The notes beneath the pieces are model-generated. The model was not told the DNA's origin and searched no databases. It saw only the letters and a program-made list of their open reading frames with translations. The position numbers and the translations under genes are program-made. Of a stretch of 35,481 bases of DNA, positions 11,488 through 35,481 are shown in pieces (positions within the stretch are counted from its first letter, which is position 1; each line of letters begins with the position of its first letter). Source of the stretch: a virus. Where the stretch lies: IMG/VR virus record IMGVR_UViG_3300005069_000003, positions 1 through 35,481 of that record, one strand, 5' to 3'.

Positions 11488-11823
11488 ATGGCTATCGTAG
11501 TAAAAAACATCATTCCACGTAAATACGCAGAGAATGCTCAAACAACACAGTACACAGCAGTCAATTGTAAAACTGTGATTGATAAGTTCACTATAACTAA
11601 CATTAGTGGGGCTACTGTTACTATCAGTATCAATTTGGTTTTATCTGGTAATACACCTAGTAACCTAGATTTAGTTTTGAAGTTGAAAGCTATTCAGCCT
11701 AATGAGACGTACCAAGCATCCGAATTAGTGGGGCAATCACTAGAATCTGGTGGCTTTATCTCATTAGTTGCAAGTGTTGGATCAGCTTTGGTGGTGAGTG
11801 CTACTGGGCGTGAAATCACATAA
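11488..11823 (+). CDS. Hypothetical protein (111 aa), last gene of late block 1
   Basis: AAAGGA SD before ATG 11488, preferred over the TTG at 11470. Confidence 0.5.
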   Translation: MAIVVKNIIPRKYAENAQTTQYTAVNCKTVIDKFTITNISGATVTISINLVLSGNTPSNLDLVLKLKAIQPNETYQASELVGQSLESGGFISLVASVGSALVVSATGREIT

Positions 11824-11831
11824 GATTACCT

Positions 11832-11988
11832 AAAACCTAGTTTTGTAAATACGGAATTTGTAAAATCTATTTTCAAAAACATAGGGTTAACCCTTAGTTT
11901 GTCTCATTTTAGAGACATTTTTGCTACAGATAAGCCCCTAAAATGTAGCAAGTTATAACAAAGCACCTTTTTCATAACTTTTAGTTAT
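11832..11988 (+). repeat. Duplicated non-coding element, copy B (contiguous, 157 bp)
   Basis: Matches 35369-35481/54 and 232-274 with 3 mismatches in total. AGGGTTAACCCT lies at 11883-11894. Confidence 0.9.
11900..11922 (+). terminator. Weak intrinsic-terminator-like hairpin inside the duplicated element (also at 9-31 = 35437-35459)
   Basis: TGTCTC-ATTTTA-GAGACA followed by TTTTT. The stem is only 6 bp with 3 GC pairs. It lies 77 nt after the stop of the last gene of block 1. Confidence 0.35.
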
Positions 11989-12027
11989 GTTACGACTATT
12001 TAACCACCTATTATTTTTATAGAATTA

Positions 12028-12036: not shown

Positions 12037-12144
12037 ATAAAAGATTGTGGTGGTAAATGTATCATCCCTTTTATTACCACGATCATCATTGTCGAGTTAC
12101 CAAGCCGCCGACAGCTTAATCAGATATATACCTTATGGGCGTTT

Positions 12145-22883: not shown

Positions 22884-24777
22884 CATTATTTAAAATAACA
22901 CCCTTCTTATCATAGTCCATAAGTTCAGCCCAATTGGTATAAGACACTGAACCTTCGCTTAATATAGGCACATCAAACTCTACAGACTCCATAGCTTTGC
23001 GGAGTACCTCCATTTCACTAACCATTAAGTGGGTAGGTACGGATACCGTTATTTGATCGTGCACATTAAGCACGATCCTAGCATCCTTGTGCTTGACAAC
23101 GTGATAGCGTATGATCGCCTCCTTGGTACAATCGGCCGCGCTGCCTTGAATTAGGACATTAACCATTTTGTAGTCTTTTTCCCACACTCTACCATCTTCC
23201 ATGACCTCTGCCGGCTCACAATAATACATACGACCACCCCATGTTCGTAAATGCTGGTTTGCTTTCGCCCTAGACTTCATAATACTGTATAATTCTTTAA
23301 GACCAGGATATAAAGCTAACACACTATTTTTTAGCATTTTCGCCTCATCTTGGCTCATATCGTTTTTTTCGGCAAGTTTGGTAACCCCCATACCATAAAT
23401 TAAACCTAGATTGGTATTTTTAACGGCTTTGCGGTTGTAATGTAACCCCATTTTCTCTAACTCGGCTTTGGCATGATCATGTAAGTCGATCCATGGGTTT
23501 TTATTGTAGGTAGCTTGCAAAGCCCCATCCTCAAAGTGAGCTAAAATCCTTGGTTCTTGTTGTGAATAATCCCGGTCGATAAAGCAGTGCCCTTTAAATG
23601 GGGTTAGGTACTCGCGCACATTAGGTAGACCAAACTGCTGTATAAACAAAGACTTACCATTATCATCAAACTTTTTAGGGATGTTTTGAAAGTTTGGTGT
23701 CGATGACAACCGCCCCGTTCGTGTACCGATAGACCCATTACCTTTAGTAACTTTGGTTTGATTCCAAGTGGTGTAAATAACACCACCAGAAGTCTTTGCT
23801 GTAAGCTGCCAAGGCCTCATAAAGGTATTAAGGCAAGTGTTTAATTGAGCCCTATAGGTGATACCATCAAGTAGATATTTATCGCTAACACCTAATAATA
23901 AAGCATCTTTATTAGTTTGAAGTTTGCCTGTAGCTGTTTTTGGTAGCTTGCTGGTATCTACTTTACCAGCTGTAACCATAGCATGCACAAGCTCATCGGC
24001 TGAATCTAAATTAAAACCACCAAAATCACTACCTAAATAATTGAATAACCAAGTTTCAACCTCAAGCAAAACAGATACATACTTATCTATGTCCTTATTT
24101 AACGCCTCTACATCCACAGGTATACCTTGCCGATCCATCTCTAAGATAATAGGCATTAATCCTTGTTCCCGTTGGTATGCGTATAACATACCATTGCTAA
24201 CAATTCGTGAGTATAGTAAGTTAAATAACCCTTCTGTGCGCTCTACGTCACCATTGGCATACTCACCGACTAAACTACCAGGCGCATAGCTTAGGTAAGC
24301 ACCAAAATAGTTTGATGAATTCTTAGAATCACTAATTTTAATACCAGTAACCGGTTGCTCATTAATAAGCCACTCCCCCACAGCGTCGCGCTCCTCGGGC
24401 TTTAAACCAAGTAAACGCTCACTAGCTGGCTTTAACCCTAGTTGTGATTGGTGCGGGTCATCTAAGAATAGTAGAATCATAGTATCATGGACTTTGTGGG
24501 GGTGTAATGGGGTTGCCCCCATATGAACCTCCGCAACGTCCATATCAAACTTAGCATTGTGGCAAACAACACCATCTTCATGCTCAAAAGCTAAGCTCAA
24601 AGCCTCTTGCGCCTCCTCCTTTGTGCAATTGTTATCGCTAGCATGCCCCCATGCGTAGTACTTAGCCTCTACACCAGGGTACTTAATCGCCACCCCCACG
24701 GGTTTTGGTGGGTAATGGGGTCGTGACTGGATTTTCTCCGTCTCGAAGTCAATCGCTACTGGTTTTATTTTTTGCAT
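22858..24777 (-). CDS. Family A DNA polymerase with 3'-5' exonuclease domain
   Basis: 639 aa. Exo I AIDFETE and Exo II HNAKFDMDV. Pol motif A DYSQQEPRILAH, motif B RKAVKNTNLGLIYGMG, motif C NVHDQITV. Confidence 0.9.
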   Translation of the reverse strand: MQKIKPVAIDFETEKIQSRPHYPPKPVGVAIKYPGVEAKYYAWGHASDNNCTKEEAQEALSLAFEHEDGVVCHNAKFDMDVAEVHMGATPLHPHKVHDTMILLFLDDPHQSQLGLKPASERLLGLKPEERDAVGEWLINEQPVTGIKISDSKNSSNYFGAYLSYAPGSLVGEYANGDVERTEGLFNLLYSRIVSNGMLYAYQREQGLMPIILEMDRQGIPVDVEALNKDIDKYVSVLLEVETWLFNYLGSDFGGFNLDSADELVHAMVTAGKVDTSKLPKTATGKLQTNKDALLLGVSDKYLLDGITYRAQLNTCLNTFMRPWQLTAKTSGGVIYTTWNQTKVTKGNGSIGTRTGRLSSTPNFQNIPKKFDDNGKSLFIQQFGLPNVREYLTPFKGHCFIDRDYSQQEPRILAHFEDGALQATYNKNPWIDLHDHAKAELEKMGLHYNRKAVKNTNLGLIYGMGVTKLAEKNDMSQDEAKMLKNSVLALYPGLKELYSIMKSRAKANQHLRTWGGRMYYCEPAEVMEDGRVWEKDYKMVNVLIQGSAADCTKEAIIRYHVVKHKDARIVLNVHDQITVSVPTHLMVSEMEVLRKAMESVEFDVPILSEGSVSYTNWAELMDYDKKGVILNNETAPLQML

Positions 24778-30653: not shown

Positions 30654-30914
30654 TCACCGACCAGAACACGCGGGGCATGTTACATAGGTAAATGTGAAAC
30701 CCTCCGCCGGCACTTGTTTAGTACCTAGGCAAGCAGTGCAGTCTTGCTTACCTAACACAGCGAGTGCTGTGCGGTAAGCGCGGCTGTAATTTGCGAACTC
30801 AATAGCGTCACCACCTTTGTCGGGGTGGTGCTCAGCTGCTAATCTGTGCCATTGTGCCTTAACATCTTCTAACGTCGCGGATTCTGGTAAATGTAGTTTT
30901 CTAAAACAACTCAT
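30654..30914 (-). CDS. J-domain protein with C-terminal CxxC...CxxC zinc-finger-like motif
   Basis: 86 aa. HHPDKGGD (HPD motif) flanked by helices. CTACLGTKQ...CPACSG. GAGGAG SD 7 nt before ATG 30914. Confidence 0.7.
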   Translation of the reverse strand: MSCFRKLHLPESATLEDVKAQWHRLAAEHHPDKGGDAIEFANYSRAYRTALAVLGKQDCTACLGTKQVPAEGFTFTYVTCPACSGR

Positions 30915-30918
30915 GGGT

Positions 30919-31104
30919 TTACTCCTCAATGATTTCCGCAACAAAGCGGCTTGGTAAAGGTTTGTAGGTGCCGTCAATATATTGACCTATAAAATAATAT
31001 TTATCTTCAAACTGGCGTAAAACTGCTAATTCTTTACCATGTACGAAGGGCTTAAGCTTTTCTAACGCTACATAAGCGTCGGACTGTGTGTAGAATCTAT
31101 TCAT
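30919..31104 (-). CDS. Small early protein, paralog family member 3 (61 aa)
   Basis: 8-nt ATGAATAG overlap. Family pattern MNRFYTQSDAYVALEKL...YYFI...LPSRFV. Confidence 0.5.
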   Translation of the reverse strand: MNRFYTQSDAYVALEKLKPFVHGKELAVLRQFEDKYYFIGQYIDGTYKPLPSRFVAEIIEE

Positions 31105-31312
31105 TAGGTACCTCTCTTATTTTTCTGTAAGCCCGGTATATTAAACTGTCGGGAACATGAACAATGTCATTATTTTTATGCTCAAAAATAATATGCGTTG
31201 TCTCATCTTTAAAGTTACTAGTTGTGAATATTGAAAACTCTCTATCATCATAAACTTCTATAAGTTTTAAAAGTGCACTAACAGCGTCACACATCGATGT
31301 AAAATTATGCAT
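31097..31312 (-). CDS. Small early protein, paralog family member 2 (71 aa)
   Basis: 8-nt ATGCATAA overlap. MHNFTSMCDAVSALLKL...VHVPDSLIYRAY. Confidence 0.55.
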   Translation of the reverse strand: MHNFTSMCDAVSALLKLIEVYDDREFSIFTTSNFKDETTHIIFEHKNNDIVHVPDSLIYRAYRKIREVPNE

Positions 31313-31517
31313 TAGATACTCCTACGTATTCATTTATTAAACTATCAGGAACTTTAATGAAACGACTACCTAAACCGTTACGGATATCTGCAACAACAAT
31401 ATAGTAATGATCATCTTGATATGATTGGCGTACTACAAATTTACGATCTTTGAAGGTTTTGGTTAATTTACAATAAGCTTCAAATACATCCTGTATTGTG
31501 TTAAATTTGTTACTCAT
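31305..31517 (-). CDS. Small early protein, paralog family member 1 (70 aa)
   Basis: Start at ATG 31517 (MSNKFNTIQDVFEAYCKL...IKVPDSLINEY). The track start at 31586 would overlap the upstream gene. Confidence 0.55.
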   Translation of the reverse strand: MSNKFNTIQDVFEAYCKLTKTFKDRKFVVRQSYQDDHYYIVVADIRNGLGSRFIKVPDSLINEYVGVSNA

Positions 31518-31518
31518 A

Positions 31519-31692
31519 TCAATACCCCGCAGCGCTAAATGGCGCGTGTTCGAATGTGATATCATTTGAACCAAGACCGTATTCACGTATAAGCCACTCT
31601 ACCTTGAACTCTGCTTCATGATAACTAGTGTAATACCACACATGTGGCTCATCATTAATAGTGGCTGTCACTCTAAATTTACTATTTTCCAT
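31519..31692 (-). CDS. Hypothetical small protein (57 aa)
   Basis: AAACGAGGAG sits 6 nt before ATG 31692. The track start at 31755 lies inside the promoter. Confidence 0.5.
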   Translation of the reverse strand: MENSKFRVTATINDEPHVWYYTSYHEAEFKVEWLIREYGLGSNDITFEHAPFSAAGY

Positions 31693-31743
31693 ATTTTTCT
31701 CCTCGTTTATGGAACCTGTCGGGATTACCGACAGGTTAGGTAT

Positions 31744-31772
31744 ATTGTAAATCATTAATTTCTATTTGTCAA
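31744..31772 (-). promoter_or_regulatory. Sigma70 promoter TTGACA-N17-TACAAT
   Basis: Plus strand reads attgta(31744-31749)-N17-tgtcaa(31767-31772). Lies just downstream of the primase-helicase stop. Confidence 0.55.
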
Positions 31773-31799
31773 TAGCCCAATCATAAATTTACCGTTTTT

Positions 31800-33866
31800 T
31801 TAAAACTTTGACTTTTTTGGTTGATTTTGATCCGCCCAACCATCCAAATGCTCACCGACTTCCTTTACGTCAGCATCCGCCCAACGCTCACGATTGCGCA
31901 CCGCAAAAAATCGACCATATAAGCTACCATTTTTTAAGCGATACGGGCGCCCATTAAGCACTTGTTGAACACCAGCGCGACTTAATTCACGGCCTAAGCC
32001 TTGAGGGGTAGTGCCAGTCTTGCCTGTGGGGTCGTAAATCGTTATCAGTTCCTTTGCGCAAAACAAATCTTTTGTTATCTTCTTGTCACCCAAATACAAC
32101 ACATCATCAGGGCATGCTAACAAACTACGAACCCACGAAGCAAGTTCACTTCTGACGGTGTCAATCATGCGCTCTTTTGCTGCTGTCTTGAACGCGGGGG
32201 CGGATGGGTTAAAGTCGCGTAAATCAAGGTTCAAAAGATAGTGGAATATGGCTGCCGCACCATTTTCGTTGTGTATCCAATTATCATAAATTTTATAAAA
32301 TTCCTCGGGCAAAGGGTTTACGATAATTTCATGGATGAAAAATCGGCGGTCGTCGTCTTCTAGAAAGAATGAATCAGGGTGGTTTGCCGTAAAAAAATAG
32401 TTTATACAGTCAGGAACAACGTACGTCGGTACATATTTACCGTTGACGCGCAATTCTTTTTGTGTAATCAATTTTTTCAAAAAATCGGCGTCGGCGCGCT
32501 TGTTTGAGCCTGTGACATCATCCCCTAGCACAAACTGCTTACCTTCTGCCCACTCATTAAATGAACTATGTAAGTCCATTTGACTGATTTCAGTGAAGTT
32601 CTTACCATAGATTTTACCTAGTGTATACCCTATAAGCGACTTACCTGTCCCATGTTTGACGCCATGCAAAACGGCGCTGCTAAACATCTTAGCGCCAGGG
32701 TTCTGAAGTGGGTAAGCACACCAGCGTAAAAACCATAGTCGAGCTTCAGGCTCCGCACCAGAAAAAAGGTGGTCCACCAACTTAAGGAAAAGACCAACGT
32801 CGCCATCACGGGGTGATACCCCCCAACCAGGCCAAATATTAAAGTGTGGTAAATCATCCACAGTCGTGAAGTGATCAAGCCCTGGGCGGTAAGTTATTTT
32901 AGTAACTTCAGATCGCAAAGGCCATTTAAGCCATTCAGCGGCAGCTGATACTGTTTTATAGCTTACGGTACCGTCTTGCTTTAATTGCCGGGAACTGTAG
33001 TTGGTTGTACTTTGTAGGTGTTCCTTAAATGCCCCTGGGCTTGTTTTGAATTTACTTAATTGATCCACAATTAAACCAGGATTTTGTACATAAACATACT
33101 TCTTATTAAGTTCGAACAAAGGGGCAGTTATCCCCAAAGGCTCTGCCTCTACGAGCAATTGACGAAACTGCTCTGCGGCGTTGGCGCCAGCGTGCACAAG
33201 AAAGTCATCTAGGCCTACTTTCTCAAGACCTGGGAGCTGTGGCAATGATACAACATGGCAGAATGCGCCACGGCGGTGCAACTCTTCAGCCAAAGCGATG
33301 AGCGCCAAACATACCTGTTGGTTGGTTCTGTAGTCGCTGTCAAAACAGATATACACGTTGCGCCTTTGCCACACTACCAACTCTAAACTTGGTAAAAACG
33401 GAACTCCGAGCTTTTGAGCGCGCCAGTTGTGCACTCCACCAAGCCCGATTGTTGGAAACCCCTCTTTACAAGCTTTAGCAGCCTTGAGCTCACCCTCTGT
33501 AATTATCAAAGGGGCGTCGACGTCATCAATGAGCGCCTTCCATTTAAAATTCTGTGGGTAATACGCCACAGGTGCTGTGTTGGGGGGTTGTGTGTATCTT
33601 TGTTGTTTTTTAGCACTTCCATCGTTTTCAAGATAGCGTAACCTAAAAAATGGGGGAGAGTTTGCCCAATCACCTAGTGGCTTACCCGTTTTAGGTGAAT
33701 AATAATTGATTTTTAACGATGAAAGACGCTTAAAAGCGTGGTGTTGTGCTCGTGTAGCTGCGCCGTCCAAAAAATCTATATACAGAAGTTGCGCGTCGCT
33801 CACATCTAAGCCACTTGATGTAAGTTTATCCCTACATAAAATTAATGTTTTTTCACTTGTAGTCAT
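31800..33866 (-). CDS. Bifunctional DNA primase (TOPRIM) / SF3-type helicase
   Basis: 688 aa. TOPRIM LIITEGELKAAKA...GLGGVHNW...VYICFDSDY. P-loop HGVKHGTGKSLIG and Walker B FVLGDDV. Confidence 0.8.
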   Translation of the reverse strand: MTTSEKTLILCRDKLTSSGLDVSDAQLLYIDFLDGAATRAQHHAFKRLSSLKINYYSPKTGKPLGDWANSPPFFRLRYLENDGSAKKQQRYTQPPNTAPVAYYPQNFKWKALIDDVDAPLIITEGELKAAKACKEGFPTIGLGGVHNWRAQKLGVPFLPSLELVVWQRRNVYICFDSDYRTNQQVCLALIALAEELHRRGAFCHVVSLPQLPGLEKVGLDDFLVHAGANAAEQFRQLLVEAEPLGITAPLFELNKKYVYVQNPGLIVDQLSKFKTSPGAFKEHLQSTTNYSSRQLKQDGTVSYKTVSAAAEWLKWPLRSEVTKITYRPGLDHFTTVDDLPHFNIWPGWGVSPRDGDVGLFLKLVDHLFSGAEPEARLWFLRWCAYPLQNPGAKMFSSAVLHGVKHGTGKSLIGYTLGKIYGKNFTEISQMDLHSSFNEWAEGKQFVLGDDVTGSNKRADADFLKKLITQKELRVNGKYVPTYVVPDCINYFFTANHPDSFFLEDDDRRFFIHEIIVNPLPEEFYKIYDNWIHNENGAAAIFHYLLNLDLRDFNPSAPAFKTAAKERMIDTVRSELASWVRSLLACPDDVLYLGDKKITKDLFCAKELITIYDPTGKTGTTPQGLGRELSRAGVQQVLNGRPYRLKNGSLYGRFFAVRNRERWADADVKEVGEHLDGWADQNQPKKSKF

Positions 33867-33910
33867 TTTTTACCTCGTTTTTTCTCGTTATTCTATACGA
33901 ATTTAACAGC

Positions 33911-33939
33911 TTGCGCTTATGTTGCGTTTGTGCTATAAT
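33911..33939 (+). promoter_or_regulatory. Plus-strand promoter inside the early arm: TTGCGC-N17-TGcTATAAT
   Basis: TTGCGC at 33911-33916, 17-bp spacer, TATAAT at 33934-33939 preceded by TGC. Its 11-mer GTGCTATAATT (33930-33940) is identical to that of the late promoter (348-358). Confidence 0.5.
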
Positions 33940-33942
33940 TAA

Positions 33943-34014
33943 GTGTTGGGTGTGCTAAGGCACTGCTCACCAAGTCGGTTTGTCCTCGTTTAAGAGACTG
34001 GCGAGCCCCAACAC
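33943..34014 (+). ncRNA. Candidate structured RNA (72-nt three-way junction); expressed strand uncertain
   Basis: Closing stem GTGTTGGG(33943-50)/CCCAACAC(34007-14). Hairpin GTGC-TAAG-GCAC (33952-63). An 11-bp hairpin 33965-76/33996-34006 with a 19-nt loop. Single-nt linkers. The predicted TSS of the 33911-33939 promoter falls at the first stem base. Confidence 0.35.
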
Positions 34015-34016
34015 CT

Positions 34017-34265
34017 CTAACGTTCGCACGAACAATTATTATATTCACAGCATCCATACCAATTTAGTTCTTGTTGCTCAAAAGCCACAATGTTCCTAAA
34101 ACGAGCAATCCGCCAACAAGAGTGCCTAATTCTAAAAGGGATCGGTGTTGCGACAACGCAACAATCACAAACGCCACTAAAGTTATAACTAGGGTTTTTC
34201 CTAGTAAGGATGGCTTTTTTGCCTGGCGCTTTTGCGACTTTGTATTTTTCATTTTTTGATTCCAT
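34017..34265 (-). CDS. Alternative overlapping ORF (82 aa, Cys-rich) in a different frame from the 62-aa membrane ORF
   Basis: ACGAGGT SD lies 8 nt before ATG 34265, but the composition looks like an off-frame read of a TM-coding region. Confidence 0.3.
   Translation of the reverse strand: MESKNEKYKVAKAPGKKAILTRKNPSYNFSGVCDCCVVATPIPFRIRHSCWRIARFRNIVAFEQQELNWYGCCEYNNCSCER
34064..34252 (-). CDS. Small two-TM membrane protein (62 aa)
   Basis: Basic N-terminus KSQKRQAKK, then two hydrophobic helices (LVITLVAFVIVAL, LVGGLLVLGTLWLL). No SD at normal spacing. Confidence 0.45.
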   Translation of the reverse strand: MKNTKSQKRQAKKPSLLGKTLVITLVAFVIVALSQHRSLLELGTLVGGLLVLGTLWLLSNKN

Positions 34266-34296
34266 TTTATGTTACCTCGTGTATAATATTATGTGT

Positions 34297-34340
34297 GCTG
34301 GGGGATCCCGGTGCTTAGCGGCTGGGGATCCTGGCTGCGC
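34297..34340. repeat. GC-rich island with two GCTGGGG(G)ATCC(C/T)GG units, each centred on a BamHI palindrome
   Basis: gctgggggatcccgg (34297-34311) and gctggggatcctggc (34321-34335), 24-nt period, in an otherwise AT-rich spacer. Confidence 0.7.
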
Positions 34341-34344
34341 CTTA

Positions 34345-34635
34345 TCATTTGCTATGGTAGTAATCTGAATTTATATAATGCATATCAAACACAGCTTTGT
34401 TCTTTTTTGTCAAATCTTCTTTTGCCCATTTACTTAATGTATTAAGTAAATCTTCAGCAAGTTCCAACTTTCGTGCTAAATCATACGTTTGTTCTTCGTA
34501 TAATTCAATTTCACGGGCTTGAGTACTGTTTATAGCTTCTAATTCCTCTATTTTGTCTACTAACGTAGCGGCGTCGTTGGCAGGAATAACATCGATTATA
34601 TTAATGTTGCGGATGATGTCTTTGTAATAATTCAT
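34345..34635 (-). CDS. Hypothetical early protein (96 aa, coiled coil)
   Basis: AAACGAGGA SD. Own consensus promoter. Confidence 0.6.
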   Translation of the reverse strand: MNYYKDIIRNINIIDVIPANDAATLVDKIEELEAINSTQAREIELYEEQTYDLARKLELAEDLLNTLSKWAKEDLTKKNKAVFDMHYINSDYYHSK

Positions 34636-34670
34636 TTTTGATTCCTCGTTTTCGGTTATGTTGTATGTAT

Positions 34671-34698
34671 ATTATAACTGGTTATTTTCAATTGTCAA
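34671..34698 (-). promoter_or_regulatory. Consensus sigma70 promoter TTGACA-N16-TATAAT
   Basis: Plus strand reads attata(34671-76)-N16-tgtcaa(34693-98). Confidence 0.7.
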
Positions 34699-34986
34699 GT
34701 TGTCTTTGTGGTAATCTAACCAATCTTGCAGACCACCTAAAGATTCGGATACGTAATATGGTGAATATATATCACGTTGATCTAGGTAATTAAAACATTG
34801 AATTATGGGGTAATCCCAATCTAAACCAACTATATCGAATTCTATAACATCAGCGCCATTGTTATATTTTGGCATATCCTCTTGGGGCACACCTAAAATC
34901 TTTGCCGCTATTGTTTTCAAATCATCAAGTTGTGCATCTTTTATATCTGTTGATTTGTCTGTATTAATGTAAAAGTATTTTTTCAT
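34672..34986 (-). CDS. Hypothetical early protein (104 aa) whose first 19 residues are identical to the scaffold-like protein
   Basis: AAACGAGGA SD. N-terminus MKKYFYINTDKSTDIKDAQ encoded by the 57-nt repeat. Confidence 0.6.
   Translation of the reverse strand: MKKYFYINTDKSTDIKDAQLDDLKTIAAKILGVPQEDMPKYNNGADVIEFDIVGLDWDYPIIQCFNYLDQRDIYSPYYVSESLGGLQDWLDYHKDNLTIENNQL
34930..34986 (-). repeat. 57-nt segment identical to 4244-4300 (inverted orientation)
   Basis: Reverse complement read directly, 57/57. Confidence 0.95.
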
Positions 34987-35018
34987 TTTAATCCTCGTTT
35001 TGGTTATGTCTTGTGTAT

Positions 35019-35046
35019 ATTATAACTGTTTATTTTCAATTGTCAA
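35019..35046 (-). promoter_or_regulatory. Consensus sigma70 promoter TTGACA-N16-TATAAT
   Basis: Plus strand reads attata(35019-24)-N16-tgtcaa(35041-46). The leader is about 85% identical to the 34645-34698 cassette. Confidence 0.7.
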
Positions 35047-35260
35047 TGGTTGCGTGGTAAATATTGTAATTTATGTTGCCTGTGAACAGATTAAACTGGT
35101 CATCTGTTGCAAATAAATCAAATTCTTTTAAAGTGACACGACCTCTTTCAGTTATATTTTTATCTCCAACTTTTTGTGAAGCTATAAAAAAATAACCATT
35201 TTTATTATTATGCAATTGCATTAATTGTTTAATTGTTGTGACTTTTACAGTTGTTTTCAT
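35036..35260 (-). CDS. Hypothetical early protein (74 aa), first gene of the early arm
   Basis: CGAGGA abuts the first ATG (35269), so the second ATG (35260) has normal spacing. Confidence 0.55.
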   Translation of the reverse strand: MKTTVKVTTIKQLMQLHNNKNGYFFIASQKVGDKNITERGRVTLKEFDLFATDDQFNLFTGNINYNIYHATIDN

Positions 35261-35296
35261 TTTTTTCATCCTCGAAAATGATTGATTGATGCCTAT

Positions 35297-35324
35297 ATTA
35301 TAACTGCTTAATTTTAAATGTCAA
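35297..35324 (-). promoter_or_regulatory. Consensus sigma70 promoter TTGACA-N16-TATAAT (leftmost early promoter)
   Basis: Plus strand reads attata(35297-302)-N16-tgtcaa(35319-24). Confidence 0.7.
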
Positions 35325-35368
35325 GAGTATTTTTAGCTTTTTTCGTGTTTTAAGTGTAAAAAGTGCCA

Positions 35369-35481
35369 AAAACCAAGTTTTGTAAATACCGAATTTGTAA
35401 AATCTATTTTCAAAAACATAGGGTTAACCCTTAGTTTGTCTCATTTTAGAGACATTTTTGCTACAGATAAGCCCCTAAAAT
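35369..35481 (+). repeat. Left arm of duplicated non-coding element, copy A (continues to base 54 across the junction); matches 11832-11945
   Basis: 114 nt with 2 mismatches (35375/11838 and 35390/11853). Contains TTTGTAAA x2, the 12-bp palindrome AGGGTTAACCCT (35420-35431) and the hairpin TGTCTC-ATTTTA-GAGACA followed by T5. Confidence 0.85.
35429..35481. repeat. Terminal overlap, identical to 1-53
   Basis: Direct reading, 53/53 identical. Confidence 0.9.

Follow-up and report, generated by a model that had tools for sequence, protein, structure and literature searches.

A Y-shaped RNA fold beside a promoter-like site in the primase leader of a singleton phage and its possible role in cis-antisense control of the early arm

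A predicted Y-shaped RNA fold of 72 nucleotides (nt), hereafter the Y-element, abuts a plus-strand promoter-like sequence in the phage genome IMG/VR IMGVR_UViG_3300005069_000003, and the locus raises the question of which strand the structure serves and what it does there. The window analyzed here is the whole of that record (positions 1 to 35,481), a complete genome of ∼35.4 kb in which bases 1-53 are repeated at 35429-35481. Packaging and structural genes occupy the plus strand from 391 to 20645, and early and replication genes occupy the minus strand from ∼35300 down to 20793. The Y-element sits in a 197-nt noncoding gap of the early arm, flanked by the primase-helicase gene and the final one of four small orphan early genes. 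A preliminary description had raised the possibility of a compact plus-strand small RNA (sRNA) that masks early ribosome binding sites (RBSs). Our analysis points instead to a cis-antisense, convergent-transcription module formed by the Y-element and the adjoining plus-strand promoter, a reading to which we assign a probability of roughly 40%.

The features at the center of this reading are the following:

33911 to 33916, plus strand: −35-like hexamer TTGCGC, a 3/6 match to TTGACA, with a 17-nt spacer to the −10.
33931 to 33939, plus strand: extended −10 TGcTATAAT, where GTGCTATAATT is identical to the late-operon promoter core at 348-358.
33943 to 34014, both strands: 72-nt Y-shaped three-way junction (predicted fold).

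The 11-mer GTGCTATAATT occurs at 348 and 33930 only, which upholds the match to the late-operon promoter pointed out in the preliminary description. With the −35 included, the pattern TTG-N17-TGNTATAAT has two genome sites (329 and 33911), compared to 0.06 expected, and two or more such sites were found in 0 of 100 shuffles. The site at 329 is that of the late-operon promoter, 34 nt ahead of the first late gene, and both sites have a TTGC −35. The −10 ends 4 nt before the Y-fold, itself among the most structured loci of the genome. We estimate that a full promoter match would fall beside one of the ten best structures by chance about once per thousand genomes; a coincidence this rare outweighs a single G-U pair as evidence of strand. 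The idea of a plus-strand start adjoining the structure is thus backed by the rarity of the promoter pattern, although not at the position first given, the first base of the closing stem. The canonical start predicted from a −10 ending at 33939 is 33945-33947, 2 to 4 nt inside the stem, and the fold persists in RNA starting at 33945 or 33946 (−26.7 or −22.8 kcal/mol).

Two other promoters of this phage also lead into a stable hairpin at +1. The hairpin at the predicted +1 of P12028, also a plus-strand extended −10 promoter, spans 12043-12084 on the plus strand (−18.2 kcal/mol, z = −5.5), and that of P31772 spans 31711-31737 on the minus strand (−16.2 kcal/mol, z = −5.7). Both are probably 5′ stabilizers. 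Given these two cases, a promoter leading directly into 5′ structure appears to be a house style of this phage.

The Y-fold consists of an 8-bp closing stem (33943-50/34007-14), a 4-bp UAAG hairpin (33952-63), and a long hairpin (33965-34006) whose 19-nt loop, GGUUUGUCCUCGUUUAAGA, occupies 33977-33995; the parts are joined by single-nt linkers. The stems, tetraloop hairpin, 19-nt loop, and linkers first described were all reproduced, and the fold is predicted on both strands. The long hairpin had been given as 11 bp; on the plus strand it has 10 pairs, an A-C mismatch, and a bulge. Predicted RNA energies were −29.3 kcal/mol (z = −3.2) on the plus strand and −32.2 kcal/mol (z = −4.5) on the minus strand, where 0 of 200 shuffles folded as well, and the fold was kept in 181-nt and 501-nt contexts. 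When all 72-nt windows of the genome were ranked after correction for GC content, the Y-element placed 4th among minus-strand loci and 11th among plus-strand loci; about ten other loci, several of them intragenic, folded comparably well. Among the 72-nt folds, stability peaked at 24475-24550 and 30703-30805, within early coding sequence or bordering it, with plus-strand z scores of −5.3 and −4.95 and, at 30703, a minus-strand z score of −3.8.

Known structured elements did not account for the fold. No Rfam covariance model matched at the gathering threshold in the whole window, and a relaxed threshold yielded only noise (E > 4) in 33700-34450. Neither transfer RNA (tRNA) nor transfer-messenger RNA (tmRNA) was found in the window. 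With no Rfam, tRNA, or tmRNA match, we rejected a tRNA-like element, an attP site, and known RNA families (ribozymes and phage RNAs such as C4). A hammerhead-type three-way junction was also rejected, given the single-nt junction linkers and the lack of a conserved core.

These numbers also bear on whether the locus has any function. A chance fold next to a chance promoter-like sequence in a fast-evolving, orphan-rich spacer would be in keeping with the singleton status of the locus, with the ten or so other loci of comparable stability, and with TATAAT and TGNTATAAT, each of which is found at chance frequency genome-wide. Such an origin would, however, place a promoter expected 0.06 times per genome beside a top-ranked structure in one of the few noncoding gaps, a structure with z of −4.5 that none of 200 shuffles equaled, and we consider it quite unlikely.

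We next consider how far a plus-strand transcript would extend. No intrinsic terminator was found on the plus strand after the Y-element, where the sole hairpin has 4 bp and −2.9 kcal/mol. The next plus-strand terminator-like site in the scanned interval, 31000-35481, lies at 35437, exactly at the early-arm end and ∼1.5 kb downstream of the antisense promoter:

35437 to 35464, plus strand: 6-bp hairpin with UUUUU directly after it, the first terminator-like site that a transcript from the antisense promoter would reach; the late arm holds a second copy (11900-11925).

With no terminator after the Y-element, a discrete 72-nt sRNA is unlikely, and the plus-strand transcript would most simply be a long cis-antisense RNA of up to ∼1.5 kb, or a shorter one if Rho acts. 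No plus-strand open reading frame (ORF) downstream of the antisense promoter has a plausible start. A protein-coding reading of the Y-element was not supported: the 46-amino-acid (aa) ORF at 33917-34057, called by one gene caller, and the TTG/GTG mini-ORF have an absent or atypical RBS, an intermediate codon score, and no family match.

The genes and promoters that such a transcript would meet, or leave behind, are as follows:

31800 to 33866, minus strand: primase-helicase gene (688 aa, DUF3854 and DUF5906).
33867 to 33942, minus strand: rest of the primase 5′ leader, including the antisense promoter in reverse-complement form as well as the primase RBS AACGAGAAAAAACGAGGU (ACGAGG at 33878-33873).
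34017 to 34265, minus strand: last orphan early gene upstream of the Y-element, reading frame uncertain.
34671 to 35324, minus strand: three tandem early promoters TTGACA-16-TATAAT (35324-35297, 35046-35019, and 34698-34671), consensus matches.

The promoter-like site is thus on the strand opposite the early operon, inside the primase leader and downstream of three consensus early promoters. The tandem promoters point toward the Y-element and drive three of the four orphan early genes, with transcription continuing through the gap; the fourth, at 34017-34265, lies just downstream of the tandem-promoter range. We infer from this arrangement that host σ70 RNA polymerase would start at ∼33945-33947 and transcribe against the early operon. 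The first ∼70 nt of the RNA would fold into the Y-structure and act as a 5′-terminal stabilizer, the role that the +1 hairpins of P12028 and P31772 probably have. From there, the RNA would probably extend antisense across all four orphan early genes, together with their three strong promoters, and end at the hairpin-U5 at 35437-35464, or earlier by Rho. It could then act in cis in two ways: (i) convergent transcription may interfere with the early promoters, and (ii) the antisense RNA, perfectly complementary to early mRNA, may pair with it, also at the Y-element's sense copy in the primase leader, and so lead to double-strand-specific cleavage. The predicted outcome is a sharper shutoff of the immediate-early genes, an uncoupling of primase mRNA from them, or both. 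If the promoter fires, the locus would be a compact antisense switch driven by host polymerase that silences immediate-early (probably host-takeover) genes and separates them from the replication genes.

Promoter classes in this genome are split by strand. On the minus strand, promoters were located at 35324, 35046, 34698, 27601, and 31772, and on the plus strand at 349, 12028, 27790, and 33931. The early minus-strand promoters are near-identical TTGACA-16-TATAAT cassettes without TG, whereas the extended −10 TGnTATAAT is found on the plus strand only (4/4), as are all four TGNTATAAT sites. It is tempting to speculate that this split would fit an early-to-late switch that disables −35-dependent promoters; no anti-sigma candidate for such a switch was identified in this phage. 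No integrase or repressor was found among the phage genes scanned.

The gene next to the element had been proposed to form a type I toxin-antitoxin-like pair with the plus-strand RNA, an arrangement that our analysis does not support. An 82-aa Cys-rich ORF (34017-34265) with an ACGAGGT RBS overlaps a 62-aa ORF (34064-34252) that has two predicted transmembrane helices and no RBS; gene callers disagree between the two frames, and codon scores do not separate them. Neither ORF has a Pfam or PHROG match or any homolog. To overlap the supposed toxin mRNA, the plus-strand RNA would need to extend at least 50 nt past the Y-element for the 62-aa ORF or 3 nt for the 82-aa ORF. Because no terminator intervenes, overlap with the small-ORF mRNA is likely on sequence grounds.

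Several observations weigh against a cis-antisense role. The sense (minus) strand folds more stably by both energy and z score, and the sole pair that discriminates between the strands is G-U there but A-C on the plus strand. Taken alone, TGNTATAAT occurs at a chance count (4 versus 2.9 expected). The designation "late-type" for the promoter holds for its core, which resembles P348, but not for its surroundings: the site at 33911-33939 lacks the 53-nt upstream repeat common to both late-arm promoters. At −8.1 kcal/mol, the hairpin at 35437 is weak, and as part of a duplicated module it may exist for other reasons. No homolog of the Y-element was found anywhere searched (INPHARED, IMG/VR, and neighborhoods in 5.8 billion proteins). 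Finally, related phages appear to regulate primase through a sense-strand leader and not through antisense RNA.

The duplicated module consists of a 123-nt repeat (11822-11944 versus 35359-35481, 95% identical) and a 53-nt repeat (227-279 and within the 11822-11993 region, 92% identical). The copy of the control region inside the late arm, at 11822-11944, sits between late genes, ahead of P12028, and each copy puts a plus-strand hairpin-U5 upstream of an extended −10 promoter (P12028 and P348). The duplicated hairpin-U5 with its promoter looks like a terminator-promoter module that splits the late operon.

To place the Y-element in an evolutionary context, we searched for relatives of the element, its neighbors, and its promoters. 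Searches of the region against INPHARED by blastn and megablast gave no match. The 197-nt spacer, compared by blastn with 72 related IMG/VR loci, gave chance 14- to 16-mers only; an exact 18-mer scan of IMG/VR gave one chance intragenic match (L073); and a single-sequence covariance model of the Y-element, R1, had no match in 56 related loci. The 62-aa ORF has no relatives in IMG/VR, and for the two genes upstream of the Y-element (62-aa and 96-aa products), a search of 5.8 billion proteins returned no homolog outside their own contig. The early-promoter cassette pattern had 0 matches in IMG/VR. The only other assembly, L078, is 100% identical to this phage; the next-best primase among the 5.8 billion proteins is 69% identical, and the closest characterized primases, from Stenotrophomonas phage AXL3 and Pseudoxanthomonas phage PW916, are 55 to 56% identical. 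The phage is a singleton.

Although the Y-element has no relatives, the position that it occupies does have a structured RNA in related phages. In three Logan contigs and most of the 72 IMG/VR relatives, the early genes begin with primase, and a TTTACA-N17-TAnAAT promoter and a conserved leader (∼140 to 190 nt) lie ahead of it. Example leaders, each upstream of primase, are the following:

L004, 2805 to 2945, plus strand.
L030, 2792 to 2932, plus strand.
L036, 2772 to 2909, plus strand.
L066, 2804 to 2953, plus strand.

A covariance model of this leader, R2, matched 44 of 56 related loci, always on the primase strand (E ∼1e-7 to 1e-32). In the hand-drawn structure, 87.8% of cells were paired, compared to 68.8% in shuffles and 34 to 41% in slid controls, and compensatory changes were found in 27 of 35 pairs. 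Stem P1 is 11 to 12 bp long and covaries (the 11-bp P1 is 98.9% paired). The leader holds the invariants CCUCAGCAAG and ACACCUUU; two hairpin loops carry the Shine-Dalgarno (SD)-like sequences GCUGAG and GCUGAGG, complementary to the invariant CCUCAGC, and the modeled outer pairing appears to cover the primase RBS. The leader is absent from Rfam, even at E ≤ 1, and is a candidate new cis-regulatory RNA family. Present in several dozen environmental phages (44/56 loci searched) and strongly covarying, it may be the more useful by-product of this work.

The relatives' leader resembles the Y-element in lying directly upstream of a DUF3854/DUF5906 primase, in its stable multihelix structure, and in the SD-like sequence in its loops; it differs in its length, its own TTTACA-N17-TAnAAT promoter, and its invariant motifs. 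Run on this phage with filters off, R2 had no match near 33867-34345, nhmmer also had none, and the CYCAGCAA motif was absent there. With no match in this direction or, by R1, in the other, homology of the Y-element to the family leader was rejected.

These leaders nonetheless bring into view an alternative in which the antisense promoter match is fortuitous or irrelevant and the Y-structure works only in the polycistronic minus-strand mRNA, as an intercistronic or leader element before primase. It could serve there as a partial attenuator, a processing site, or a stabilizing hairpin, with the RBS copy in its loop sequestered as the vestige of a lost gene or as a decoy or standby site. With three consensus promoters upstream, transcription of the minus strand is certain; this strand holds the better fold, with its G-U pair in place of A-C; and 44 of 56 relatives have a covarying sense-strand leader, with GCUGAGG in loops, at the same position. 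The caveat attached to the preliminary description, that the G-U pair might assign the structure to the minus strand, was therefore well placed: the minus strand does fold better, and the relatives' structured leader is on the sense strand. In this phage, another intercistronic hairpin, GC rich and with two GGGGATCC(C/T)GG repeats, lies at 34290-34335 between the 96-aa gene and the next RBS, with no U tract after it. Beyond the closing stem, the sense-strand tail reads UUAAUUAU, with 5 U in 8; the structure is branched, its U tract is poor, and the terminator consensus scan did not call it, which sets it apart from a canonical terminator. Downstream of the Y-element, primase lacks a dedicated promoter. 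A candidate sense promoter, TTGGTA-16-AATAAT (34062-34035, minus strand; 9/12 consensus matches), would start 10 to 20 nt before the fold, a poorer fit to the promoter-then-hairpin style. A purely sense-strand role would also leave the rare promoter pattern abutting the structure by chance, would gain nothing by descent from the family leader, to which the Y-element is not homologous, and would have to accommodate a mini-ORF with an atypical spacer and a TTG start after the loop RBS. We regard such a role as unlikely, although it is the leading alternative; the antisense promoter evidence is compatible with a functional sense structure as well.

The loop itself was the basis of the sRNA proposal:

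33983 to 33991, minus strand: hairpin-loop copy of AAACGAGGA, the RBS motif of the early arm; the plus strand reads UCCUCGUUU.

The early and late genes of this phage differ genuinely in their RBSs. An extended RBS, aACGAGG(a/t), is used by 10 or 11 early genes (starts on the minus strand at 34986, 34635, 34265, 33866, 31692, 27528, 27103, 26390, 24777, and 22817, and at 35260) and never by late ones; ACGAGG has 13 minus-strand copies and a single plus-strand copy, none of which serves a late gene. The primase leader holds a tandem AACGAGAAAAAACGAGG. The extended motif would exceed pairing with 16S rRNA, since the C of ACGAGG would lie opposite another C, that of the anti-SD. A literature search for ACGAGG as a described RBS variant returned nothing relevant. 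The preliminary description had the extended motif complementary to the loop upstream of at least 11 genes. We found that exact AAACGAGGA occurs four times on the minus strand, at the genes starting at 34986, 34635, and 31692 and at the Y-element itself; AACGAGGA lies upstream of 6 genes and ACGAGG upstream of 10, and only the CGAGG core reaches 11, including 35260. The loop is complementary to early RBSs because the Y-element carries a 12th same-strand copy of the early RBS motif. As a same-strand feature, the motif is more readily placed in a minus-strand RNA, in which the loop GAGG is mostly paired (unpaired probability, 0.15 to 0.25). Genuine early genes have an A-rich spacer of 5 to 8 nt and an ATG start; the mini-ORF that follows the loop copy has a 9-nt spacer that is not A rich and a TTG start.

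Masking in trans would have the loop UCCUCGUUU of a plus-strand small RNA pair with RBSs of the AAACGAGGA type, block the 30S subunit, and shut off early translation. It draws on the same promoter evidence as the cis-antisense reading and on an early motif longer than 16S pairing appears to explain. The 9-mer is exposed in the plus-strand RNA (mean unpaired probability, 0.85), and its predicted duplexes with the translation initiation regions of motif-bearing early genes (−12 to −17.7 kcal/mol) are stronger than those with most late genes (mostly −5 to −11 kcal/mol), but some late regions reach −13 to −14 kcal/mol and the early preference is modest. The complementarity follows automatically from the sense-strand RBS copy, all 9 nt match 3 genes and 8 nt match 6, no terminator would make a discrete sRNA, and perfect cis complementarity to early mRNA would compete with pairing in trans. 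The compact 72-nt masking sRNA thus lacks independent support, comparative support included, and we consider it very unlikely. Even less probable is its fullest form, in which the loop of an antisense RNA made by host polymerase, directed at aACGAGGa, silences a whole temporal gene class in trans as a riboregulatory counterpart of T4 RegA/RegB. The sequence evidence has no need of global RBS masking.

The location immediately upstream of the primase-helicase gene suggested one further role, at the level of DNA. A hairpin in single-stranded DNA near the primase gene could be a priming or origin signal, like plasmid ssi sites, or the adjoining promoter could activate an origin by transcription. 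DNA parameters predict the same fold (−17.7 kcal/mol, z = −4.2, minus strand). No iterons or direct repeats surround the Y-element, however, the repeat-rich region conserved with relatives lies at 150-280, and the relatives' element at this position behaves as RNA (G-U pairs, promoter directly upstream). We judge a DNA-level signal to be highly improbable, the least probable role considered here. The divergent control region has (GA)n and (TA)n simple repeats at 150-230, where relatives have (GAA)n (L074:2540-2640; L077:1610-1720), as well as a conserved GAGAATAGAAAC and short repeats of the TGTAGC(G) type; it could represent a family-wide conserved origin or packaging region. Repeats were also seen inside two late genes: a 219-nt direct repeat in the 497-aa gene (8227-8445/8545-8763, 87% identical) and an exact 29-nt repeat in the 1014-aa gene (15236-15264/15389-15417).

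The cis-antisense reading can be compared with several known systems. Phage lambda OOP is a 77-nt structured antisense RNA with its own intrinsic terminator that pairs in cis and leads to double-strand-specific cleavage. The present locus is like it in having a promoter just upstream of a replication gene, aimed back into the preceding early gene; it differs in that OOP is a discrete, terminated RNA, whereas no terminator follows the Y-element, and the two have no sequence relation. In the plasmid countertranscript systems, R1 CopA/CopT, ColE1 RNA I, and IncB RNAI, a constitutive antisense promoter in the replication-gene leader produces a highly folded RNA with loops complementary to loops of the sense leader. 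An antisense promoter inside a replication-gene leader and a folded RNA with a complementary loop are common to both, but the plasmid RNAs are terminator-ended and each overlaps its target, be it a leader peptide, an RBS, or a primer. The antisense RNA of this phage would start 65 to 80 nt upstream of the primase RBS and run away from it, leaving the primase RBS uncovered.

Two other systems correspond to the alternatives. RsaE/RoxS of Firmicutes are conserved, terminator-ended host sRNAs with repeated C-rich motifs in loops that are anti-SD to several mRNAs. The Y-element shares an exposed loop complementary to the SD region of several mRNAs; it differs in having a single loop, no terminator, no conservation, and a motif explained by the sense-strand RBS copy. 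The RNase III sites of T7 are single irregular hairpins of ∼20 bp or more between early cistrons. The Y-element resembles them in being stable and irregular and in separating two early cistrons, again on the transcribed strand, but it is a three-way junction of 8, 4, and 11 bp.

Lytic phages are documented to have antisense promoters in their early regions, and phage antisense RNAs have been described whose starts were mapped (PMC10914365). In lytic Pseudomonas phages, the early-region antisense promoter of LUZ19 (Phikmvvirus) and the antisense RNAs of PAK_P3, with experimentally mapped starts, were proposed to limit transcription or expression of the opposite temporal class (PMC10914365). The LUZ19 promoter is read by the phage RNA polymerase and is conserved in its genus, whereas the site described here looks like a host σ70 extended −10 promoter and has no known relatives. 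Only masking of RBSs in trans, if true, would represent a new regulatory logic, and it would also explain an early RBS motif longer than 16S pairing needs. A cis-antisense module would instead add an example to known switches such as lambda OOP, the plasmid countertranscripts, and the Pseudomonas phage antisense RNAs, and would introduce no new principle. Taken together, the pairing of a structure with an antisense promoter in this singleton phage is real and statistically unusual, and it most resembles known cis-antisense control modules.

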